From: a virus
Virus record (IMG/VR): IMGVR_UViG_3300027657_000001
Reading direction: 5' to 3' (one strand)
Length of the DNA stretch: 39,126 nucleotides
Made by a program: the position numbers and the translations under genes. Positions 1,894-39,126 of the stretch are shown here, one piece after another (the stretch's first letter is position 1; every line of letters starts with the position of its first letter). The notes below the pieces were generated by a model. That model had not been told where the DNA came from. It searched no databases and was given only the letters and a program-made list of their open reading frames with translations.

Positions 1894-3174
1894 TTAAATA
1901 ATCGTACAAGCTTGTTCACTAGCTTGGCGTGAATTCTTACATGTAGAGAGTATTTTCTTGTAAGAAGCAATCCGTTCTGTTTGGGGCTTTGAAGTCCCCT
2001 TAATGAAAGGTAGCGCTGTTTTCATGAGAGTGCCACCTAAATTATATCCCGCTTGATACGGATCCCGTTCATACAGATCACGAGAGTCTTCTATCCATTC
2101 TAACAACGCATCATGTAGAGGTGTATCAACATCAATGCCAAAGTTAACCGCAAAAGATTCAACGAGGAGATTACAGATACTGTGGGCTGCATCGACAATA
2201 GGCCTCACCAAAGCATCAGTCGCTCCCCGTGTCGTACCATACGCTGCCAGTAACGGATGCATAACGCTCTCAATCGCTTGCGTATTCAATGCACCCCATT
2301 GCTCCCATTCAAGAGTTGCGTGTCTCTCTACCATCAATGCTGTCTCTGCAACACTCGCATTAATGTATTGGGTCGTTTCAGACCAGTTAATATCTGTCGT
2401 AAAATTAGGAACGGTGATGCCTTCGCTTCGAAGCATGCCATCGACGTTGTAAATGTCCGTGGTGCATGTCATAGACGTACGCACAAAGTCACAGCTGGCA
2501 AGAATACGATCCTTTCGAGCCTTCACCTCTGGACGCTCTTCATATTTCAATCTGATTGATTCTAGTTGGCGATCGCTGATAACTCCCTGCATATGCAAGA
2601 TAGCAAAACGAGTCAATATCGAGCGAGCCTCATCCTCATTACGAGTGATCATCATCTCCATGGTTTCTACCACTTCAGGAGAATTGGCATGTGACGACCA
2701 GAGCTGAAGCATCTTGGTATAATACAGACGATCTCGTGGAGAAATATCTCTAAGAGAGAGATAATCCATAATACGGCTACGCTCTAATTGCATATGATGA
2801 ATATCTAAATGCTCTACCAAGCGCGTAAATTCTTGGTGTTTCTTTGCCAGATCCCATTGCTGCTGCCGTGGAAGCGTTCTCATATCGATCCCATGCAATG
2901 AGCGACCTGCATTTAAATCATCCAGCGTATATTCTCTTGTATGATGCATAGATGAACGAGCACGGCGTTCCGGTGAATATCCGTGATACTCTCCAGTTAC
3001 AAGTGTTTGTAATACACACCCAAACGTTTCATGCAAGGTGGGGGGTTCATCAAGAAAAATATTAAATGGTCTTTCTTCTGCTGAGTGCCCACCTCCCCTA
3101 AAGGATCGCTCCGATGCTCCTATAAAAACAGTAAAAAAAAGTAGTGGAAATGTAGTGAATTTATGTAGTACCAT
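1894..3174 (-). CDS. Secreted protein of unknown function (426 aa), encoded antisense within the head-gene module
   Basis: Long ORF with GAGGAG 8 nt before the ATG. The hydrophobic N-terminus MVLHKFTTFPLLFFTVFIGAS looks like a signal peptide. It has its own terminator. Confidence 0.8.
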   Translation of the reverse strand: MVLHKFTTFPLLFFTVFIGASERSFRGGGHSAEERPFNIFLDEPPTLHETFGCVLQTLVTGEYHGYSPERRARSSMHHTREYTLDDLNAGRSLHGIDMRTLPRQQQWDLAKKHQEFTRLVEHLDIHHMQLERSRIMDYLSLRDISPRDRLYYTKMLQLWSSHANSPEVVETMEMMITRNEDEARSILTRFAILHMQGVISDRQLESIRLKYEERPEVKARKDRILASCDFVRTSMTCTTDIYNVDGMLRSEGITVPNFTTDINWSETTQYINASVAETALMVERHATLEWEQWGALNTQAIESVMHPLLAAYGTTRGATDALVRPIVDAAHSICNLLVESFAVNFGIDVDTPLHDALLEWIEDSRDLYERDPYQAGYNLGGTLMKTALPFIKGTSKPQTERIASYKKILSTCKNSRQASEQACTII

Positions 3175-4454: not shown

Positions 4455-4489
4455 GGGCCTTCGCTCACTTGAGCGGAGGCCCAATTTTT
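4455..4489 (+). terminator. Intrinsic terminator or attenuator between the scaffold and capsid genes
   Basis: 12-bp stem gggccttcgctc / gagcggaggccc (one G-U pair) with loop actt, followed by aattttt. Confidence 0.75.
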
Positions 4490-4626
4490 GTTATATATCT
4501 ATTTGACTGAATAAAAGACTCGTCACCTTTACGGCTGACATCAGGGACTCGCCAGCCCGTGGCTGACAATGAAGCTCGCCACTTCACAATGTAAATATTG
4601 TGAATCTTTTTATAAAAGGAGAGGCT

Positions 4627-4938
4627 ATGGCTGTAACTACTACAAGCCTTCTGCCCGCTCCAGTACAACAATCGTTTAGTTATAAACTATTGTCTGTTCC
4701 AACACCAGATTTTATTCACACGTTACCTGCTGAGAAGAAATACATGCCACGTCACGGTGGTACTACTCTTCGTTTCCGCAGATATAACCCACTGAATACG
4801 GCGTTGGTTCCACTGGGGAATAGCGGTGTTACACCACCAGCTCAAACACTGAGCGCTGTCGACATTGATGCCCGCATGTCATTCTATGGTACATATGTCA
4901 TACTCAACGAGCAGGTAACTCTGCAAAATCAAGACCCT
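4627..4938 (+). CDS. Major capsid protein, exon 1
   Basis: GGAGAGG then ATG at 4627. KYMPRHGGTTLRFRRYNPL...YVILNEQVTLQNQDP resembles the N4-gp56-type capsid family. The unspliced frame runs into a short unrelated tail and stops at 5001. Confidence 0.85.
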
Positions 4939-4993
4939 AAAATGAATGGGGTCTATAAACTTTCTCTAATTGACTTGGAAGCCGAAGTAGCTC

Positions 4994-5503
4994 TTAGCTA
5001 ACCGGTGACAGGGCCGAAGGATTTTTTAAAGGATGTTCATGCCAACGACTATTAAGATTGCGCAACTCACTCATAAGCTCAAAACGCTGATCATTGATCT
5101 GATCAGGAAGTCTTTTGCTTCCGATGTTTTTGCAGGTCTTTCTATATCGTCTCATGACATCACAATGTGGCTTTTTAATAATAAGATATGGTTCAACTAC
5201 ATCAAGAAGATAATCAAGCATTTCTCCGGTAGCTTGCCAGTTATAAACAGGTCGCGTAAATTTCTTTTTACTCGTCCATCTATAGCGGGAATCACGAGCT
5301 CCTCCAAATGTTTGTTCCAACCACTTAATGAGAATCTCATCGCAACTGGTTACTTTGAGCATGACATGCCATTGCCATCCAGATCCGTATTTACCTTGCT
5401 TAACTCTACCGATGTAGAAGCAACCTTCTCCATCGATGATTCCAGCAAGATAAGCAATTTGAGTGGCAATTTGGTGAGTATGAAAAATAACTTTTTTAGC
5501 CAT
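4994..5503 (-). CDS. LAGLIDADG homing endonuclease (single-motif type), antisense to the intron and capsid gene
   Basis: Motif YLAGIIDGEGCF plus LDYLLDVVEPYLIIKK. ATG at 5503 (MAKKVIF...). The track ORF extends to 5554. Confidence 0.85.
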   Translation of the reverse strand: MAKKVIFHTHQIATQIAYLAGIIDGEGCFYIGRVKQGKYGSGWQWHVMLKVTSCDEILIKWLEQTFGGARDSRYRWTSKKKFTRPVYNWQATGEMLDYLLDVVEPYLIIKKPHCDVMRRYRKTCKNIGSKRLPDQINDQRFELMSELRNLNSRWHEHPLKNPSALSPVS

Positions 5504-5524
5504 ATTGAATCTTTCGTTAATAGC

Positions 5525-5533
5525 AGTATAGCA
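5525..5533 (-). promoter_or_regulatory. Candidate extended -10 promoter (TGcTATACT) for the homing endonuclease gene
   Basis: On the minus strand, tgctatact lies 21 nt upstream of the ATG at 5503. The -35 region is weak. Confidence 0.3.
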
Positions 5534-5723
5534 CATAACGAATGTAAAATCCACGGTGAACGACTAAGTGAGAAAGCAAATGAGATGGAAATAGATAGTA
5601 CAAGAGCTTTTTGTCTCATTTGATGCGATAGTCTGACCTCCGTTCGATAAGACGGAGAGGGAGACCCGAAGAGGTTTCCCCGCCCGAAAGGGTCAGTAGC
5701 CGAAAGGTGAAAGTAACAGAACG

Positions 5724-6362
5724 GTTCTTAACGAAGCGGCAAATAGATTGGGCGTATCCCTTAAGCAAACAGAGGATACTCTTGCTCGTGATATGCTTGC
5801 TTCTACGGCATCGGTTATTAACTGCGTTGGCGGCGTGAACGGAGACAATCCGACTGAAATGACTCGCTCAGACGTAGACCAGGTAGTAAAAGTACTTAAA
5901 GGAAACGATTCTAAACCGTTTCTTTCTGGTATGGCTGGAGAAGACAAATTTGGGTCTGCTCCGGTTCGCTGGGCGTACTTTGCACTTGGAAGTACTGACC
6001 TCATTGGAGATTTGGAGAACGTGTCTGGGTTTATTTCTCAAGCACAGTACCCAAATCCGATGAATGCAATCAGTGATGCTGAGTGGGGTTCTATATCTAA
6101 CCTTCGATTCATGCTGTCTTCAATCGGCTCTAAAACAGCTAATTCTTCTGCAAATGGAAATGACGTATACAACGTCTTCTGTGTTGCACGTGAAGCATAC
6201 GCATGCGTTGAACAAGATGGATATAGCGCACAATTCATCTATCGCCCACCTATCTATGATGGGCCGTTAGCGCAGAACTCTTCTGCAGGGTATAAAATGG
6301 CACAAGTACCTCGAATCTTGAACGATCTCTGGGTACAAAACCTACGTTGCACCCTAGCGTAA
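5724..6362 (+). CDS. Major capsid protein, exon 2
   Basis: The frame is open from 5700. VLNEAANRLGVSLKQTEDTLARDML continues the capsid motif from exon 1. Both exons are multiples of 3 nt, and the spliced product is 316 aa. Confidence 0.85.
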   Translation, partial: VLNEAANRLGVSLKQTEDTLARDMLASTASVINCVGGVNGDNPTEMTRSDVDQVVKVLKGNDSKPFLSGMAGEDKFGSAPVRWAYFALGSTDLIGDLENVSGFISQAQYPNPMNAISDAEWGSISNLRFMLSSIGSKTANSSANGNDVYNVFCVAREAYACVEQDGYSAQFIYRPPIYDGPLAQNSSAGYKMAQVPRILNDLWVQNLRCTLA

Positions 6363-20135: not shown

Positions 20136-21314
20136 ATGGCCTATAAGAGAATATCTCCCCTACCCATAATTGAGGGGGGAACCCAACGAACATCCATAGA
20201 TGCCAATACGGTAGTCTGTGGAGGAACCACGGCAACGGGTGCATTGCAGAACGTATCAGGTGTTGGAGAAAGCTCTCAGGCTCTCACCTCTCAAGGTGCC
20301 GGAAGTTTGCCCATATGGGCTGAGTTATCCAATGCTACCTTCTTTGAGCCGTTAGCATCAGATCCCAGCGATCCTACAGTAGGACAAGTGTGGTATAACA
20401 CTACCTCTCAAGAGTTCAAGGGGGCTATTGATGGCGGAAGTACCCCTACATGGACCACAAAAGCCTCATCGGGAACATCACAAGGTCCTTATCAAGGAGC
20501 TGCGGGGGATGATACTGATGGTCTGGTATTCGGTGATATTTCCGTAGTAGGTCTGACACAGCTCTATGATGGGGGAACTAATAGTTGGTCTACCAAAAAC
20601 TCAATGAATACCAGTCGTAAGCAAGCCGGTGGAGGAGGAACCACTTCTGATGCCTTGGGATTCGGGGGCGGAATTAACACCCCAACAGGAGTTCTTAACT
20701 CTACAGAATCATTTGATGGAACAAATTGGTCTGCTGAAAATAATATGAATACGGCTCGAAGAGAGCTCGCAGGATGTGGCACAACCGGGTCAGATTGCCT
20801 CTCAATAGGAGGCTGGAATAATGATTTTGGCGGCACTATTGGAACTGTTGAACGATGGAATGGCACAAGCTGGACAGCAAAAACTTCGCTCAATACCGTT
20901 CGCAAGCTCTTAACCTCAACTGGAACTGGATCAGATGCTTTAGCTGTTGGTGGTAACACTAATGCCGGAACCTTACTCGCTACCAACGAGCAATATGATG
21001 GTACAGCAAATACGTGGAGCACCAAGGCCTCTATGTCTAATGCGCGCAGAGATCCTGCAGCTGCTGGAACTGTAAGCGATGCTCTTGTATATGGTGGTGT
21101 AGGTTCCAGTGGCACAACAGGCGTTACAGAGCAGTATAATGGAACTTCTAATAGCTGGACTACTGTCGATTCTATGAATACAGCGCTCGCAACATTGGGA
21201 GGATGTGGATTGGTAACAGGCGCACTTGCAATGCTTGGAGGATCAGTAGTTACTGAGAAGTATGAAGGCGTTGTAGGTCCCACAATAGTAGTATTTGATA
21301 TAACGGCAGCATAG
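20136..21314 (+). CDS. Fibre paralog 2: shared N-terminal module plus Kelch-like beta-propeller repeats (392 aa)
   Basis: Repeats of about 47 aa of the form ..YDG..N.W......MNT.R......G...DAL..GG. Confidence 0.7.
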   Translation: MAYKRISPLPIIEGGTQRTSIDANTVVCGGTTATGALQNVSGVGESSQALTSQGAGSLPIWAELSNATFFEPLASDPSDPTVGQVWYNTTSQEFKGAIDGGSTPTWTTKASSGTSQGPYQGAAGDDTDGLVFGDISVVGLTQLYDGGTNSWSTKNSMNTSRKQAGGGGTTSDALGFGGGINTPTGVLNSTESFDGTNWSAENNMNTARRELAGCGTTGSDCLSIGGWNNDFGGTIGTVERWNGTSWTAKTSLNTVRKLLTSTGTGSDALAVGGNTNAGTLLATNEQYDGTANTWSTKASMSNARRDPAAAGTVSDALVYGGVGSSGTTGVTEQYNGTSNSWTTVDSMNTALATLGGCGLVTGALAMLGGSVVTEKYEGVVGPTIVVFDITAA

Positions 21315-21323
21315 GAGAAGAGC

Positions 21324-22505
21324 ATGGCTTATAAACAAGATGCACGACGTCCAGTAAAAGAGGGTGGGACTGAGAAGCTATCCTTCAACGAGTACTCCAT
21401 TATTATTGGAGGACAGACTGCTCCAGAGCCACTCCAGAATGCTGTACCTGGTGCTTCCGGGACTCTTCTTATATCGCAAGGTGTTGGTTCCCCACCATCA
21501 TTTCAGGTACCTCCTATAGATCAGATGAAGTTCCAGCTACTCAGCGCCGATCCGAGTTCTCCAGGAGACGGACAAGTGTGGTATCGTACTGACTTGGATG
21601 AATTTCGCGGGTCTACTACCGATACTGATGGTGTATGGACAGCTAAAACAGGTATCAGTACTGCCACTCGTGGGTTAGCAGCCGCAGGACAACAGGTTGA
21701 TGGGGGTATCTACTTTGGTGGGTTTACTACGGCTCGTGTAGGAACAACCGAGCAGTATGATGAAGGGGGCAATTCCTGGTCAGCTCTCGGCTCTTTGAAT
21801 ACAGCACGATTAGCGCTTGCAGGTGGAGGAAGTAGCAGCGATGCTCTTTCTGCTTGCGGTGATGCCCCAGGAGCATCAGCAACTACTGAACGATTTGATG
21901 GTGCCAATTGGACTGCTAAGACGAATGCTAATACAGCTGTTATCGGTGGAGCAGGGACTGGATCAGACGGGGAAGACTTTCTCAAGTTTGGTGGTAATAC
22001 GGGAGCTGCAACGGCAATTACTGAGCGCTACTCAGGAACGGGAGATTCGTGGACTAATAAGACCTCAATGAACACAGCGAGGTTTAGTTTACAGAATGGT
22101 GGCTCAGGAGCGGCAACAGATGCACTTTCTATTGGAGGATATACGGGTGCAAGCCCCTTTACAACTGTTGAGTTGTATGAAGGTGTGGGTAATACGTGGA
22201 CTGCTAAGACGGGCCTCAATACGGGCATGCGTTCAGGCGCAGCCGCTGGTATAGCAAGTGGAAATGCCCTCTCATGTGGTGGTAATGATGGAGCAGTCTC
22301 AGCAATATGCGAAAGATATGATAGAGCAGGTAATACGTGGGAAGTTATCAGCTCGCTCAATACTGCCCGACAACAGTTTCCCGGCCTCGGAACAGCTACT
22401 TCAGCATTAACGATGGGCGGTTTTACAACGGTAAACGTAGCGACAGTGGAGCAGTATTCTTCACCGGTAGCAACCATATATACATTCGACCTCACCGCAG
22501 TTTAG
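21324..22505 (+). CDS. Fibre paralog 3: shared N-terminal module plus Kelch-like beta-propeller repeats (393 aa)
   Basis: Same architecture as 20136..21314: TERFDGANWTAKTNANTA..., TERYSGTGDSWTNKTSMNTARF.... Confidence 0.7.
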   Translation: MAYKQDARRPVKEGGTEKLSFNEYSIIIGGQTAPEPLQNAVPGASGTLLISQGVGSPPSFQVPPIDQMKFQLLSADPSSPGDGQVWYRTDLDEFRGSTTDTDGVWTAKTGISTATRGLAAAGQQVDGGIYFGGFTTARVGTTEQYDEGGNSWSALGSLNTARLALAGGGSSSDALSACGDAPGASATTERFDGANWTAKTNANTAVIGGAGTGSDGEDFLKFGGNTGAATAITERYSGTGDSWTNKTSMNTARFSLQNGGSGAATDALSIGGYTGASPFTTVELYEGVGNTWTAKTGLNTGMRSGAAAGIASGNALSCGGNDGAVSAICERYDRAGNTWEVISSLNTARQQFPGLGTATSALTMGGFTTVNVATVEQYSSPVATIYTFDLTAV

Positions 22506-23454: not shown

Positions 23455-24153
23455 TTAGATAATTTTCTTACGGGTGTTCTTTATTTCCATCAAGCGGTTA
23501 CGGGTTTGGTGGTAATGCTCTTTAGGAATGTCCGCCAATGATTGTATTTTGAAATAGTGCAGAATCTCTTCTAGGTATCCCTCCATCGTCGGGTCTTGCA
23601 GTTCGTACTCAAGCTCCTCCCTTTGATCGGTAGAGATCACCTCATACTTCTGGTCAGTGGATTTAAACGTACTCATCTTTCCTTTAACGAACTCTTCTCG
23701 CAATGGTATGTCAGCCACGAATGCATCATCATCCTCAGATTCAGCTACCACGCCAATGAGGCTCGCGTATGCCAAACGTTTCATGCTCGATAGGTATGAT
23801 GTGAGGGTTTGTATTTCTTGTTTGGGAGGGGTGAGTTTTAGCCGTGTTTCAATCCATTGTCCGGACGAGTGGAACAGAATGGTATGGAGCATGGAGCTTC
23901 CATCTTCCAGGTGTTTTATTTGCTGCATGACGGAAAGCCCGTGCTTGGTGAGCGCTGGTCTCGATGCATTGACCACATCAACTAGGTCTTCATAACGGTG
24001 TTGGTAGTATTTATTTTGGTGGGAACGTTTTGCTGTTTGAAACTCTGCCTGTGCTTTTGCGAGGGCTCCCGTGAGTTCATTTATTTTGGTGCTCCGATAG
24101 GAGTTGGTTGGATCCACATCACTCATCAAAAGCTCATCACTTACTCTATCCAT
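23455..24153 (-). CDS. erf: ERF-family single-strand annealing protein, paralog 1 (232 aa)
   Basis: NKYYQHRYEDLVDVVNASRPALTKHGLSVMQ matches the Erf signature region (compare P22 Erf KYKYRSCEDILEGVKPLL). Confidence 0.7.
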   Translation of the reverse strand: MDRVSDELLMSDVDPTNSYRSTKINELTGALAKAQAEFQTAKRSHQNKYYQHRYEDLVDVVNASRPALTKHGLSVMQQIKHLEDGSSMLHTILFHSSGQWIETRLKLTPPKQEIQTLTSYLSSMKRLAYASLIGVVAESEDDDAFVADIPLREEFVKGKMSTFKSTDQKYEVISTDQREELEYELQDPTMEGYLEEILHYFKIQSLADIPKEHYHQTRNRLMEIKNTRKKII

Positions 24154-34035: not shown

Positions 34036-34503
34036 ATGAGCGAGTCAAAAAAAAGGCATTTTCAAATGCCAACGGTGAAACGAATCGTTGAGTATTGGAA
34101 TAACAAATTTACTATTTACGATAAAGAATGTTTTGCGTGCGGAAGAATAGCACCACTTCACAGAGCGCATATTGTCCCTTCTTGGATTGAAGAAAATAAT
34201 CACGTATCAAATCTACATCTATTATGTACTATGTGTCATGCTGAATCAGAAGGGCTGAAGCTCTATCAAGAGTGGTTTGATTATAAGCGAAAAAATGAAC
34301 GAAAAGATCCCGTTTCTCATGTTATAGACATGTGGAAAAAGTGCGGTATTCCATTTGATGAAGATGCTAAAGAGTTTGAATTGTATGAAGAGAAATTTGG
34401 AATAGAAAAATACTATAAAGAACTCTTGCCACGCTATATAGAAGAAACGCTAGATAAAGTTTACTACAATAAGCCTTATGCAAAAAAAGAAATGGGGATG
34501 TAG
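34036..34503 (+). CDS. HNH homing-type endonuclease (155 aa)
   Basis: CFACG...LHRAHIVP...NLHLLCTMCH gives the CxxC..H..N..CxxCH arrangement. Confidence 0.8.
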   Translation: MSESKKRHFQMPTVKRIVEYWNNKFTIYDKECFACGRIAPLHRAHIVPSWIEENNHVSNLHLLCTMCHAESEGLKLYQEWFDYKRKNERKDPVSHVIDMWKKCGIPFDEDAKEFELYEEKFGIEKYYKELLPRYIEETLDKVYYNKPYAKKEMGM

Positions 34504-34571
34504 CTCAGTTTGGTTAGAGCGTCCGCCTGTCACGCGGAAGGCCGCGAGTTCAAGTCTCGTCATTCCCGCCA
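34494..34571 (+). tRNA. tRNA-Asp: tRNA-Asp (anticodon GUC) with encoded CCA
   Basis: Cloverleaf folded by hand. Acceptor ggggatg/cattccc, D stem gctc/gagc, anticodon stem tccgc/gcgga with loop ctGTCac, T stem gcgag/ctcgt with loop ttcaagt, discriminator g, then cca. Confidence 0.9.
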
Positions 34572-34882: not shown

Positions 34883-37279
34883 GTGAACTTAGAAACAAAA
34901 ATAAAATTAGACGCCTTTCGCCCTAGACCATATCAGAAGCAGCCATTAGACGCTCTTTTCAACAAGGGCTATAAGAGAATGCTATTGGTGTGGCCGCGAC
35001 GCGGAGGCAAAGACGTCACCAGTTGGAATATCATCATACGAGCAGCCCTTACGAAAGTAGGGGTATATTTTTACTGTGCACCTACCTACTCACAAGGCCG
35101 CAAGATTATATGGGACTCTATAACAAATCATGCGGTTAAATTTTTAGATTATCTTCCAAAGGAGTTGATAGATCGGAAGAATGACCAGCAAATGAAGCTG
35201 CATTTAAAGAACGGCTCACTCATCCAGATCATTGGCTCTGATTCCTATGATAATTCAATAGTCGGGTCTAATCCTCAAGGGATCATATTTACAGAGTGGG
35301 CTTTGTCTGATGAGCGTGCGTGGCAGTTTGCTCGTCCTATTTTAATGGCGAATGACGGGTGGGCTATCTTCAATTCTACGCCAAGAGGCAAGAACCATTT
35401 ATGGGCTATGTATCAGCTAGCTCTACACTCTCCACAATGGTTTTGTCAAAAGCTTACCATTGAAGATACGGGTCACATTGATATTGAAACAATCCAAAGA
35501 GAACGTGCTTCTGGTGAGATGTCTGAGGATCTTATTCAGCAAGAATATTTTTGCTTTCCAGGTACTCAAGAGGTATTAGCTCTTGATGGATTAAAGTCTA
35601 TATCCGATATAGAAGTTAATGATATGGTCATATCTCATTCGGGAAGACCGAGAAAAGTTTTAAATACTATAAAAAGAGACTATGAAGGCGATCTAGTTAA
35701 AATATATTCATTTGGGTCTCCAGAGCCTCTGATATGTACGCCAAATCATCCTATACGGGTTTTTAATAAGGCCGCTCAAACATATTCATGGAAAAGAGCG
35801 GAAGATATTACCTTACATGATCGTCTCGTGTTTCCTAAAATGCCACTGGGGAAAGTGCAACTTATATCATATGATCTTTGTATGCTTATTGCTTGGTATA
35901 TCTGTGAAGGCTCTTCTTTTAAAAATGGTGTTCAATTTACTGTTGGGGACACAAGAGAAGTGGAACGCATTACGTCTCTTTTGTGTAATATAAATGTTCC
36001 ATATACTCTTTTTGTGTCTTCAAATGGATCATCAACCAATATTGTCGTTTCAAGCACTCAATTAGTTGATTTTTTTAAATCACTTTGTGGAACAGAATCA
36101 AATAATAAGCGCATACCGTTTATATGGATCGCTACGCATGAGATAGATTTTTTTCATGAGCTTATGTGGGGAGATGGCTGTTATTCAGAGCATAACAATT
36201 ATAAAAAATTTTCTTACACAACAACAAGTAAGACTCTTGCTTACCAAGTTCAGCTTCTTGCCAATAGTCTAAATCTTGGATATGCAGCGGGTATAACGAA
36301 CCGAAAGGGAAGTACTGCTACTTTTCCGCACGGTAAAACCTATAAATGCAAAGATTCGTATTCGGTGCAGATCGGCATAAAAGGCTTGAGAGAAAAGCAT
36401 GGTGCCTTAACAAGAGCAAAATACGGAATAGCTGCTCGTATCAAAAATATAGAAAGAGAAAGTCATAAAGGGGCCGTATACAACTTAAAAGTACAATACG
36501 ATGAAAGCTATGTGGTATTAGGACGCTCGGTACATAACTGTAGCTTTGAGATGGGCGTTGAGGGTTCATTCTACGCGAAATATATCGACACTATGAGACG
36601 AGAGGGACGGATTGGAATAGTTCCCCATGAATCTACTTTCCCAGTACATACAGCATGGGATTTAGGTGTTTCAAAAACTGATTCAACGGCGATAATATGT
36701 TTTCAGGTGATTGGTCAGACCATTAAAATAATTGATTGTTATGAGAGTACTAAGCAAGGTTTTCCAGAATATTTGCATATTCTAGAACAAAAAAAGAAAG
36801 AAGACGGATGGATATGGGGAAAGCATTTTGCGCCACATGATATAAAGGTTTTAGAATTTGGTTCTGGTTTGACACGCCTCGATATTGCAAGGAATATGGG
36901 ATTTTCTTTTGAGGTAAGGAGAGATAGGCATAATAATATTCAATCATTACTTCCACCGCTTACTATAATGGATGGTATTGAGCAAGTGAGAACTATTTTT
37001 CCCCGTGTTTGGATAGATGAACAAAAATGCTCTCCCCTTATTAAAGCTTTAGAAAACTATCGAGCAGAATTTGATACTAGAAATAATGTATATAAACGAA
37101 TACCTGTTCATAATTGGGCGTCACACATGGCCGATGCCATGAGATATTTGGCTATAGCAATTAAGTTAACACAAACGCGCAACTCTACGCCTGAAGAGCT
37201 TGAAAAGAGATACCGTGAAGCCGTCTATGGGCCTCAGCACGGAGGATTTTTCGGTGGACACGGTACGCATCAATGGTAG
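34883..37279 (+). CDS. terL: Terminase large subunit precursor (798 aa) containing an intein
   Basis: Walker A-like WPRRGGKDVTS, Walker B-like GIIFTEW, and nuclease-domain acidic motifs (AWDLGVS, FAPHD, HMADAMRYL). GTG start. Confidence 0.85.
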   Translation: MNLETKIKLDAFRPRPYQKQPLDALFNKGYKRMLLVWPRRGGKDVTSWNIIIRAALTKVGVYFYCAPTYSQGRKIIWDSITNHAVKFLDYLPKELIDRKNDQQMKLHLKNGSLIQIIGSDSYDNSIVGSNPQGIIFTEWALSDERAWQFARPILMANDGWAIFNSTPRGKNHLWAMYQLALHSPQWFCQKLTIEDTGHIDIETIQRERASGEMSEDLIQQEYFCFPGTQEVLALDGLKSISDIEVNDMVISHSGRPRKVLNTIKRDYEGDLVKIYSFGSPEPLICTPNHPIRVFNKAAQTYSWKRAEDITLHDRLVFPKMPLGKVQLISYDLCMLIAWYICEGSSFKNGVQFTVGDTREVERITSLLCNINVPYTLFVSSNGSSTNIVVSSTQLVDFFKSLCGTESNNKRIPFIWIATHEIDFFHELMWGDGCYSEHNNYKKFSYTTTSKTLAYQVQLLANSLNLGYAAGITNRKGSTATFPHGKTYKCKDSYSVQIGIKGLREKHGALTRAKYGIAARIKNIERESHKGAVYNLKVQYDESYVVLGRSVHNCSFEMGVEGSFYAKYIDTMRREGRIGIVPHESTFPVHTAWDLGVSKTDSTAIICFQVIGQTIKIIDCYESTKQGFPEYLHILEQKKKEDGWIWGKHFAPHDIKVLEFGSGLTRLDIARNMGFSFEVRRDRHNNIQSLLPPLTIMDGIEQVRTIFPRVWIDEQKCSPLIKALENYRAEFDTRNNVYKRIPVHNWASHMADAMRYLAIAIKLTQTRNSTPEELEKRYREAVYGPQHGGFFGGHGTHQW
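35552..36538 (+). mobile_element. Intein (329 aa) with a LAGLIDADG endonuclease domain inside terL
   Basis: Starts CFPGTQEVLALDG. Has block B CTPNHP and LAGLIDADG-type motifs LIAWYICEGS and ELMWGDGCY. Ends VVLGRSVHN, followed by Cys+1 (CSFEMG). Visibly more AT-rich than the exteins. Confidence 0.85.
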
Positions 37280-37853: not shown

Positions 37854-39126
37854 ATGTCATTGTTTCCAAATCCTGGGCCTGATTTTAATACCACGGATGA
37901 CATAATCCTTAAAAGGATGGAAAAGTTTTATACTGATGCGATTTCTATAAATCAGTCTCAATGGGCGGAAGGTGACATAGATTGGCGATTTTATTGTGGT
38001 GATCAGTCAGTCTACCAAGAGTTGTACGGGAATATGGCACCCCTTCATAGAAAGAATTTTAGCTTCAACCGTATTCGGAGAATTGTTTCTCTTATAGAAG
38101 GCTTTCAGCGTCGTAACCGAAAATCTACCACGGTTATACCTGTGGAGGGATCAGATCAAGAAACGGCAGATCAATTCACTAAGCTTATGTATTACCTTAA
38201 CAATAGAGAAGGCGTACTGGATACTGTCTCTACGTCGTTTAAGGGTGCTCTTATTTCTGGAATGGATCTTCTGCAGGTGTATGTTGATTATCGACGTGAT
38301 CCTGTTTCAGGTGACGTTAAGGTAGACAACAACGCGTATAATTCTTTTCTTATTGATCCATTCTTTAGAAAATCTGATCTTTCTGATTGTAACACGATCT
38401 GGAAACGTTCATACGTCTCTCGCAAAGAGGCAATTTCCCTCAATCCCGCAAAGGCGGATGAAATTGAGGCACTTCAATCGTTCGTCGCTGATAAATCTGG
38501 AGATATGAAGTTCCAGTTTATGCCTGAGAACTACTCCATAAGTGGGAAAAACCTTCTTTCCTATGATGAATTTTATTATAGAGATTATCGCCTCCAAAAG
38601 ATGTTGGTTGACTCACAAACTGGTGAAACGTTTGAATGGCGAGTAGATGATGAAGCTGCATTGCGGGAATTCCTCGCTCTTTATCCACAAATTACTACCA
38701 TTGATCAAGAGATTCCTACCGTACGGGTAGCAATCGTAGTCCAAGGGAAGGTAATGTACGATGGCCCTAATCCCATGGGCATTGATTCTTTCCCCTTTGT
38801 TCCTGTTTTTGCATATTTTTCTCCGGAAGTGGCATACTACCCACTGCGCGTCCAAGGAGTTGTTTCAAACCTTCGGGACGCGCAGTTCCTTTACAATAGA
38901 AGAAAAGTTATTGAACTCGATATACTTGAATCTCAAATCAATTCTGGTTTCAAGTATAAGGCGGACTCACTCGTAAACCCCGCTGACGTATTCCTTTCTG
39001 GACAAGGACGGGGACTTGCTCTTAAGCAAGAGGCAAGCATGAGTGATGTGGAACAAATACAGCCCCCCCAGATACCACCTTCAATGTTCCAGTTGTCCGA
39101 GTCTCTCTCTCGTGAAATTCAAGAGA
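37854..39126 (+). CDS. Portal protein, N-terminal part. Open to the window end and continuing at base 128. Full length is 676 aa.
   Basis: AAGGGAG upstream of ATG 37854. I translated every codon to 39126 and found no stop. Includes LRDAQFLYNRRKVIELD. It is absent from the ORF track because no stop occurs before the window ends. Confidence 0.85.
   Translation, partial: MSLFPNPGPDFNTTDDIILKRMEKFYTDAISINQSQWAEGDIDWRFYCGDQSVYQELYGNMAPLHRKNFSFNRIRRIVSLIEGFQRRNRKSTTVIPVEGSDQETADQFTKLMYYLNNREGVLDTVSTSFKGALISGMDLLQVYVDYRRDPVSGDVKVDNNAYNSFLIDPFFRKSDLSDCNTIWKRSYVSRKEAISLNPAKADEIEALQSFVADKSGDMKFQFMPENYSISGKNLLSYDEFYYRDYRLQKMLVDSQTGETFEWRVDDEAALREFLALYPQITTIDQEIPTVRVAIVVQGKVMYDGPNPMGIDSFPFVPVFAYFSPEVAYYPLRVQGVVSNLRDAQFLYNRRKVIELDILESQINSGFKYKADSLVNPADVFLSGQGRGLALKQEASMSDVEQIQPPQIPPSMFQLSESLSREIQE
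39000..39126. repeat. Second copy of the 127-bp terminal overlap
   Basis: Identical to 1-127. Offset is 38,999 bp. Confidence 0.95.

Follow-up and report, generated by a model that had tools for sequence, protein, structure and literature searches.

The window analysed here is the whole of a 39,126-nucleotide (nt) stretch of virus DNA, IMG/VR record IMGVR_UViG_3300027657_000001. Our subject is its major capsid protein gene, which is split by an insert with the features of a group I intron, and the homing endonuclease gene of the LAGLIDADG type that lies within the insert on the opposite strand. This arrangement had been pointed out in a note, hereafter the original prediction, made by a model from the letters and a list of open reading frames (ORFs) with their translations. 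Positions are counted from the first letter of the window, and + denotes the strand of the capsid gene. The locus is laid out as follows.

4627 to 4938, + strand: exon 1 of the major capsid protein gene, 104 codons, an ORF with a Shine-Dalgarno site (GGAGAG); its 3′ end, GACCCU, is the 5′ strand of helix P1
4939 to 5723, + strand: group I intron of 785 nt, lacking P2, which begins after GACCCU and ends with a terminal G at 5723
5503 to 4994, minus strand: homing endonuclease gene, 169 amino acids, ATG at 5503 to 5501 and TAA at 4996 to 4994, inside the P6 loop and antisense to the intron
5724 to 6362, + strand: exon 2 of the major capsid protein gene, 212 codons plus stop; its 5′ end, GUUC, is the 3′-exon strand of P10

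Joined in frame, the two exons encode a protein of 316 amino acids that aligns in one piece with 26 major capsid genes of cultured phages (22–28% identity) and has a weak Pfam match to Phage_capsid_4. In the sequence and the ORF list, exon 2 begins with neither an ATG nor a visible Shine-Dalgarno site. For comparison we used the DNA of 86 related loci (L001–L086), all set with the endonuclease gene on the + strand and searched with sequence profiles of the 5′ and 3′ parts of the ribozyme core. Insertion at capsid codon 104/105 proved to be polymorphic: about 26 loci carry the intron at this one site, and at least 12 related capsid genes are unbroken there, reading ...CAAGA(C/T)CC(N)GT(N)(C/T)T(N)AA... 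across the position. The intron-less junction that had been predicted for the capsid gene thus exists in natural alleles, with CAAGACCCT running directly into GTTCTTAAC in L034, L036, L038–L041, L047, L052, L059, L062, L065 and L080. The predicted sequence of the ligated exons is ...CAAGACCCUGUUCUUAAC..., and the intron-less junction written as a single target site is CAAGACCCTGTTCTTAAC.

Upstream of exon 1, a strong hairpin resembling an intrinsic terminator (12 pairs, 9 of them G-C) lies at 4455–4482 on the + strand after a scaffold-like gene, and a promoter-like site, CTGACA-16-CACAAT, lies at 4563–4590 on the same strand. With a terminator-like hairpin before it and a promoter-like site ahead of it, the capsid gene may form its own transcription unit.

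Standard covariance-model searches gave little guidance on the insert. At gathering thresholds Rfam matched only a transfer RNA (tRNA) in the window and no group I intron, and a search of eight related loci returned no hits. In a permissive local search, Intron_gpI (RF00028) scored 21.6 bits (E = 0.005), under its gathering score of 50 bits; the alignment covers the R and S elements together with P9, and the model cannot span the 510-nt insertion. Because the score was below threshold, we tested the fold through covariation instead. A structure comprising P1, P3, P4, P6, P6a, P7 (in a pseudoknot with P3), P9, P9.1 and P9.2 was drawn by hand, and 25 introns inserted at capsid codon 104/105 were aligned as the covariation set. 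The helices of the window's intron, all on the + strand, are these.

4933–4938 with 4948–4953: P1, GACCCU/GGGGUC, with a U·G pair at the 5′ splice site
4944–4947 with 5724–5727: P10, GAAU paired with GUUC of exon 2
4960–4966 with 5570–5576: P3
4974–4977 with 5009–5012: P4
5014–5016 with 5554–5556, plus 5019–5025 with 5546–5552: P6
5513–5518 with 5537–5542: P6a hairpin, covarying
5562–5566 with 5629–5633: P7, in a pseudoknot with P3
5577–5585 with 5614–5622: P8
5638–5642 with 5653–5657: P9
5660–5666 with 5673–5679: P9.1
5683–5685 with 5690–5692: P9.2

Across the 25 introns, the 47 pairs tested were paired in 96.6% of cases, compared with 38–50% when one strand was slid against the other; compensatory changes affecting both sides occurred in 26 of the 47, and none of 500 shuffles reached the observed values. 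The U·G pair of P1 is present in all 25 introns, with a compensatory change elsewhere in the helix in L017 (GAUCCU/GGGAUC), and P10 is 94% paired (33–60% when slid) with nine compensatory cells. The last intron base is an invariant G. P4 is nearly invariant and is uninformative for covariation. Since the invariant U·G and the frequent G·U pairs are strand-specific, the fold can be tied to the capsid strand, and the endonuclease gene lies in the P6 loop of this covariation-supported + strand ribozyme. The original prediction, that the ORF occupies the interior of the intron on the opposite strand and that neither the capsid nor the intron transcript could yield its protein, is borne out by this antisense position.

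These data also bear on an alternative in which the insert is not a splicing intron at all, the capsid gene having been split by a free-standing endonuclease cassette into two polypeptides or reduced to a pseudogene. Such an account would sit easily with the sub-threshold Rfam score and with cultured relatives, such as Stenotrophomonas phage StenR_269, in which a free-standing endonuclease gene lies beside a homologous capsid gene. It leaves unexplained the covarying pairings of P1 and P10 to the two exon ends, the covariation of the catalytic-core helices with the P3/P7 pseudoknot among them, and why exons that join in frame to a full-length capsid protein include a second exon with neither ATG nor visible Shine-Dalgarno site, and we regard it as barely credible. 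Judged by covariation, positions 4939–5723 are a genuine group I intron that splits the capsid gene, and we predict that it is spliced.

The endonuclease ORF itself was confirmed as a LAGLIDADG gene, as originally predicted, by the ORF list, by Pfam and by profile and fold matches. Its protein contains the motif YLAGIIDGEGC and reaches 23.6 bits against Pfam LAGLIDADG_1 (PF00961; cut-off 23.1). A profile of its homologs matched the solved structures of I-PanMI, I-MsoI, I-OnuI, I-CvuI and I-CreI, with full-length matches to the homodimeric I-MsoI, and in this comparison the region of D24, the acidic residue of the LAGLIDADG motif, aligned with the I-MsoI motif. The AlphaFold model (predicted local distance difference test score, pLDDT, 84) has an alpha-beta-beta-alpha-beta-beta-alpha order of helices (H) and strands (E): H13–26, E27–35, E43–53, H56–66, E69–76, E83–91 and H93–106. 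Its top 36 Foldseek matches are all chains of I-MsoI, I-CvuI or I-CreI (template modelling score, TM, 0.57–0.76). By sequence and by model, the product is a single-motif LAGLIDADG endonuclease of the I-CreI/I-MsoI type. A GTG lies in frame upstream at 5554, yet every homolog starts at the methionine of MAKK or MGK.

Selection on this gene argues against the view that it is a silent or decaying passenger, which landed backwards by accident and is unexpressed in an intron that is no longer mobile. Protein databases hold 229 intact homologs (59–85% identity), and in 35 homologs aligned without frame disruption D24, the presumed catalytic Asp, and 32 further columns are invariant; disabling mutations, which the original prediction had named as grounds for refuting it, were found in none of the homologs in hand. 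The ratio of nonsynonymous to synonymous divergence (dN/dS) is 0.08–0.30 against 17 relatives, with dS mostly above 1 and synonymous sites thus saturated, and differences at endonuclease codon positions 1, 2 and 3 number 6834, 5015 and 12301, respectively. From the low dN/dS and the intact homologs we conclude that the gene is functional and maintained by purifying selection, to judge from its pattern of substitution. The most conserved stretch of the protein is its tail: the last 13 codons (HPLKNPSALSPVS and the stop, 5032 to 4994) are the reverse complement of the 5′ strand of P6, the 3′ strand of P4 and P5, and the conservation of this tail may be owed in part to the ribozyme.

The survey of ORF orientation in related introns that the original prediction had suggested gave a nearly uniform answer. 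Matches to the ribozyme core lie on the strand opposite to the endonuclease gene in 102 of 102 cases for the 5′ core and 113 of 114 for the 3′ core. The two cores bracket the gene, the 3′ core 48–145 nt from its start and the 5′ core where its C terminus is encoded, in many cases with an overlap. Capsid exons run opposite to the endonuclease in about 75 loci, and metagenome contigs added 39 non-duplicate loci, all antisense. Sense orientation with a related ribozyme core was found only in L079 (2181–3885), where the endonuclease splits a different capsid-like gene, and in L209. More distant relatives without an intron core nearby are co-oriented with their neighbours, among them free-standing cultured-phage genes such as that of StenR_269 (three cultured-phage regions were inspected). 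By this count the backwards orientation is the rule in the clade, at more than 100 environmental phage loci. In related capsid genes, antisense endonuclease introns interrupt codons 24/25, ~88–93, 97–100, 104/105 and 181/182, giving at least five insertion sites, and genes with two to four introns are common (e.g., L029, L009, L011, L022, L028 and L055). That the same layout recurs at several sites points to repeated successful invasion and speaks further against a decaying passenger. In favour of the passenger view, some of the same capsid genes also carry ORF-less mini-introns of ~170–250 nt (e.g., L009 around 2100–2268), which shows that endonuclease genes do get lost in this family.

Two minus-strand features precede the endonuclease gene.

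5553 to 5525, minus strand: candidate endonuclease promoter, with −35 TGGATT at 5553 to 5548, a spacer of 17 nt, TG at 5533 to 5532 and −10 TATACT at 5530 to 5525
5515 to 5510, minus strand: weak Shine-Dalgarno site GAAAGA, 6 nt ahead of the endonuclease ATG

The extended −10 element TGcTATACT was placed exactly by the original prediction: TGCTATACT occupies 5533 to 5525, and its final base is 21 nt from the ATG. The −10 hexamer lies in the loop of the P6a hairpin, and the −35 hexamer is antisense to the 3′ strand of P6. The same geometry recurs upstream of the endonuclease gene in related introns, even diverged ones, when upstream regions are aligned at the ATG. Nearly every intron has T[GT]GAC[AT] or a near variant, a spacer held at 16–17 nt while its sequence varies, and a TATAAT-like hexamer, often preceded by TG; several of these are close to consensus (L029 has TTGACT-17-TATAAT). 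Across divergent loci the −35/−10 pair lies 18–48 nt ahead of the ATG and AAGGA or GAGG 6–9 nt ahead of it, and most relatives have AAAGGA or GAGGA in the place of the Shine-Dalgarno site. When both strands of 90 nt were compared with a simple promoter score, the endonuclease strand scored higher in 77 of 83 loci (Wilcoxon, p = 4 × 10−12). These observations support a conserved sigma-70-like, promoter-like module that precedes the endonuclease gene together with a ribosome-binding site, and we predict it to be active. Because further near-consensus sigma-70-like promoters occur elsewhere in the phage and none of the ORFs scanned was seen to encode a phage RNA polymerase, the host polymerase is the likely reader.

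The conservation of promoter geometry and ribosome-binding site also leaves the passenger view, despite the weakness of the window's own promoter and Shine-Dalgarno site, decidedly improbable. A different objection accepts expression and relocates its source, so that transcripts would arrive by read-through from some far-off promoter on the minus strand or from one of a phage-specific type, the −35 and −10 elements being look-alikes made of AT-rich loop sequence and the antisense of P6. The overlap of the −35 with a structurally constrained helix, the ease with which AT-rich loops yield TATAAT-like words, and the fact that the promoter pattern is not significant on its own in the window would all be expected in that case. 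The surroundings offer little from which to read through, however: neighbouring genes lie on the + strand for kilobases, minus-strand genes with family matches come no closer than 23.4–25.1 kb, and an unassigned minus-strand ORF lies at 1894–3174. Moreover, look-alikes would hardly favour the endonuclease strand so consistently across loci, or keep their spacing while the spacer changes. We consider read-through unlikely.

We propose that a ~39-kb environmental tailed phage has its major capsid gene interrupted by a mobile group I intron, and that the backwards endonuclease gene in the P6 loop is an independent transcription unit; we put the probability of this reading at roughly 80%. The ribozyme, formed on the capsid strand with guide pairings to both exons, would remove itself from the late capsid pre-messenger RNA (pre-mRNA) to leave the uninterrupted message for the 316-amino-acid protein. 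Host RNA polymerase would transcribe the endonuclease gene from the internal promoter, starting near 5518 with a leader of ~15 nt, independently of capsid transcription and converging with it. A homodimer of the endonuclease would then cut intron-less capsid alleles of co-infecting relatives near the junction of CAAGACCCT and GTTCTTAAC, and repair would copy the intron in (homing). The backwards orientation could uncouple the dosage and translation of the nuclease from the very highly expressed capsid message and keep ribosomes that translate the nuclease off the ribozyme, and heavy late transcription of the capsid gene would probably silence the convergent nuclease gene. The arrangement is either inherited or recurrent across the >100 related loci and several capsid insertion sites. 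The original prediction had also raised antisense interference, and it is possible that pairing between endonuclease mRNA and capsid pre-mRNA, which would cover the guide and the 5′ strands of P3–P6 (~4939–5518), inhibits splicing.

Several observations weigh against this proposal, in addition to the Rfam score given above. A homodimer of this type would be expected to cut a pseudo-palindromic site of ~22 bp across the insertion point. The target is without detectable palindromy, the best symmetry around the junction being 6 of 11 positions, a value reached by 67% of shuffles, which is neutral to slightly awkward for a homodimer. The window's own promoter is weaker than those of its relatives (3 of 6 matches in the −35, 5 of 6 in the −10, plus the TG), with a weak Shine-Dalgarno site, and a standard, stricter promoter scan did not flag it, the −35 having only three matches; the pattern TKGAYW-N17-TATAMT has one match in the window against 0.21 expected, which is not significant alone. 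The promoter statistics come from related loci, and their −35 overlaps a conserved ribozyme helix, so that its conservation is partly non-independent; we therefore treat the promoter score as supportive rather than as proof. A scan for minus-strand terminators 3′ of the endonuclease gene found nothing convincing, and the transcript might extend antisense into exon 1. Finally, a scan of 185,579 reference genomes found no close homolog that would point to a host. Among terminator candidates, the antisense of P1 together with UUGAUUUUG was considered as a weak terminator and rejected, since relatives, compared by eye, do not keep its U-run.

On the capsid strand, the intron contains a further reading frame that runs as a mirror of the endonuclease gene.

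4999 to 5001, + strand: first stop (UAA) in the frame of exon 1 (ORF 4600 to 5001), 61 nt inside the intron and 31 nt 5′ of the mirror-ORF AUG
5033 to 5623, + strand: mirror ORF, 196 codons, codon-aligned with the endonuclease codons; it starts at UAA-AGG-AUG (5027–5035) and ends with UGA in the 3′ strand of P8, just before P7′

The stop-free run is present in all 25 aligned introns, spanning 185–249 codons in 24 of them and 128 in L010. A stop in the mirror frame would appear as TTA, CTA or TCA in the endonuclease gene, and these codons are nearly absent where the gene lies antisense within an intron: they make up 0.5% of codons in the bodies of 74 such genes, 59 of which have none, as opposed to 4.0% in 51 relatives without a ribozyme core detected nearby. 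An independent metagenome set gave 0.07% for antisense-in-intron genes and 3.9% for free-standing or sense genes. Elsewhere the share is 4.7% in the phage's other genes and 5.2% in the capsid exons of related loci. The depletion is confined to one frame, with 0.35 stops per 100 codons in the mirror frame of antisense-in-intron genes and 5.5 and 10.2 in the other two, compared with 4.1, 4.6 and 6.0 in the three frames of relatives without an intron core nearby. Both sense-oriented genes, L079 (7 TTA, CTA or TCA in 122 codons) and L209, are without a mirror frame. This pattern is that of an ambigrammatic gene as defined for narnaviruses, in which a codon-aligned reverse frame is kept clear of stops along practically the full length of the gene, to a degree that codon usage does not explain.

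Ribosomes alone discern frames, and from stop depletion in a single frame we infer, as part of the main proposal, that ribosomes read the capsid-strand intron RNA across the backwards gene, now or in the recent past, and that this reading keeps the mirror frame open. The frame's product has no match in Pfam and shows no protein-like constraint, variation being highest at the first codon position; the possibility that the mirror ORF encodes a real protein was rejected on these grounds, and only its openness is taken to be selected. In the close family the UAA-AGG-AUG start is conserved with GAAGGA ahead of it (GAAGGA...UAAAGGAUG), and in most related introns the exon-1 frame stops in P5, 23–51 nt 5′ of the mirror AUG; this start signal was sought in distant introns and is not conserved there. 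The end of the frame varies, falling in P8, at GUC-UGA of P7′, in P9 or P9.2, or running on into exon 2.

Tentatively, and as a proposal somewhat short of even odds, we suggest that the endonuclease gene is ambigrammatic by selection: ribosomes leaving exon 1 would re-initiate at UAA-AGG-AUG after the 5′ core and cross the insert in a frame that stays open to the 3′ core, and their reading of the capsid-strand RNA, not its product, would do the work. An antisense gene would otherwise leave ~500 nt of capsid pre-mRNA inside the intron untranslated. Translation of the mirror frame could shield the late message, as it is being made, against nucleases or Rho-dependent termination, could block its pairing with endonuclease mRNA, and would hand over an unfolded 3′ core for ribozyme assembly. 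The frame might instead be a functionless by-product of the amino-acid or codon composition of the endonuclease. This would account for the lack of a family match, for codon-position variation that fits selection on the endonuclease frame alone, for start signals that are not conserved in more distant introns, and for four antisense genes with no mirror frame (L041, L052, L055 and L080, in introns near capsid codons 88–93, with 7–13 TTA, CTA or TCA codons each). A by-product should appear equally in free-standing and sense homologs of the same family, which use the three codons about as often as other genes of the same phages, and composition does not readily explain a depletion restricted to one of three frames and held across lineages with dS above 1; we therefore find this explanation doubtful, while taking it more seriously than any of the alternatives weighed above for the intron and its promoter.

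Two hairpins that resemble terminators, each with a U-rich tail, lie within the intron at 5087–5122 on the capsid strand. The second (GGAAGUCUUUUGCUUCC, then GAUGUUUUUG) runs antisense to the codons of KNIGSKRLP, a conserved motif of the endonuclease, and could be a pause site or a coincidence.

The rest of the genome gives the setting. A direct terminal repeat of 127 bp (1–127 and 39000–39126), with the portal gene crossing the window ends, points to a complete assembly of ~39.0 kb that is circular or circularly permuted. A blastn search of the region against 50,697 phage records found no match, and the intron is in no cultured phage; protein searches of cultured phages returned only endonucleases of 22–34% identity. 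The genome also carries P22-like portal, intein-containing terminase and Erf-like genes and one tRNA. Within the large terminase ORF (34883–37279, + strand, 798 amino acids) lies an intein, recognised by matches to Intein_splicing and Hom_end_hint and bearing a LAGLIDADG_3 domain, which is a second and unrelated homing element, and a tRNA-Asp (GTC) lies directly upstream at 34494–34571 on the + strand. Two minus-strand ORFs (23455–24153 and 24559–25065) each align with the N-terminal portion of the profile for ERF, a single-strand annealing protein, and could represent a duplication or a gene split by ~400 nt. Between the portal and scaffold-like genes lies the minus-strand ORF at 1894–3174, which encodes 426 amino acids with no Pfam, PHROG or cultured-phage match; the + strand there is without a long ORF. 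Two adjacent ORFs of ~390 amino acids (20136–22505, + strand) have Kelch-repeat matches and probably encode tail-fibre or receptor-binding proteins.

Mobile group I introns with homing endonucleases are textbook selfish elements. All the bacterial and phage cases that we found described are in the sense orientation, and in this clade the backwards orientation is the rule, with up to four introns per capsid gene at several insertion sites and candidate promoters carved from ribozyme helices. Beyond the original prediction, which concerned a single locus, the analysis brings out a family-wide antisense trait, a protein tail that shares its nucleotides with the ribozyme core, and the mirror frame on the capsid strand. 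The clade thereby offers a natural system for the study of nuclease expression that is independent of a very highly expressed host gene, of the tolerance or use of convergent transcription and of pairing between sense and antisense RNA, and of the extent to which the same nucleotides can serve a promoter, a protein tail and a ribozyme core. That three codons are lost in a frame-specific way is a sign, drawn from sequence alone, of ribosomes on intron RNA across an antisense gene, and it makes testable a long-standing question, namely by what means introns that are not translated withstand polarity and the coupling of transcription to translation in bacteria. If the ambigrammatic interpretation is true, it describes a new means by which a mobile element makes antisense cargo tolerable in a bacterial operon, and no ambigrammatic gene would have been described before it in a DNA phage. 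On the practical side, gene callers will wrongly break such capsid genes into fragments, and the mirror frame may itself be annotated as a gene.

The closest parallel in layout is found in the nuclear ribosomal DNA (rDNA) group I introns of myxomycetes, red algae and fungi, which resemble the phage intron in having an endonuclease gene in a peripheral ribozyme loop on the opposite strand, with an internal promoter thought to drive it. The original prediction, that intron-borne endonuclease genes are usually in the sense orientation, agrees with the literature, where we found antisense genes described only in these nuclear introns (PMC9548176; PMC3679873; PMC2585584). The named cases are Dir.S956-2 of Didymium iridis (I-DirII), Dsq.L2066 of D. 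squamulosum (I-DsqI) and introns of the Porphyra small-subunit (SSU) rDNA, and the systems involve His-Cys box enzymes, RNA polymerase II, polyadenylation and spliceosomal introns (PMC9548176; PMC3679873; PMC2585584). Antisense interference with the host transcript has been recognised there as a problem (PMC9548176; PMC3679873; PMC2585584), and separation between nucleolus and nucleoplasm has been proposed to avoid it. The phage intron, in contrast, lies in a protein-coding host gene under coupled transcription and translation, encodes a LAGLIDADG enzyme, has a sigma-70-like promoter built from ribozyme sequence, and keeps its mirror frame open.

[quoted passage not shown] These and other phage introns differ in that their endonuclease genes are sense-oriented and encode GIY-YIG or HNH enzymes. 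The T4 intron endonucleases also have their own promoters, and a review of T4 notes antisense orientation for the free-standing segD gene only (PMC2988022). A review of bacterial group I introns makes no mention of antisense or opposite orientation (PMC3984707), and our full-text literature searches found no bacterial or phage antisense case.

At the level of the protein, the phage enzyme is like the homodimeric I-CreI, I-MsoI and I-CvuI, its best matches by profile and by fold, in its one LAGLIDADG motif, its size (~160–170 amino acids) and its alpha-beta-beta-alpha-beta-beta-alpha core. The genes for those three enzymes lie sense-oriented within introns of chloroplast 23S rRNA. Identity to them is only 13–21%, and a homodimer and its cleavage are, for the phage enzyme, predictions.

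With respect to the mirror frame, the parallel is with ambigrammatic narnaviruses, in which a codon-aligned reverse frame is also stop-free over the whole gene and the forward gene likewise avoids TTA, CTA and TCA. Their reverse ORF lies over the gene for the RNA-dependent RNA polymerase (RdRp), its product has no known homology, and translation itself has been proposed to matter or to protect the RNA (10.1101/761890; PMC8316113; PMC8155312). Narnaviruses are RNA viruses of eukaryotes with a genome-wide reverse ORF, whereas the frame described here belongs to a DNA phage, lies on the host-gene strand of an intron, is bounded by ribozyme cores and ends at ordinary stops.

The nearest arrangement in a cultured phage is that of StenR_269, whose portal-scaffold-capsid module likewise has a distant relative of the endonuclease (31% identity) next to the homologous capsid gene; there, however, the endonuclease gene shares its strand with the capsid gene, is intergenic between the scaffold and capsid genes, and has no mirror frame (7 TTA, CTA or TCA codons). 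The components of the system are thus of known kinds, and what is new is their combination: a phage capsid gene as host, a backwards LAGLIDADG gene, a promoter in P6/P6a, a protein tail shared with the ribozyme, conservation across the clade and a mirror frame.

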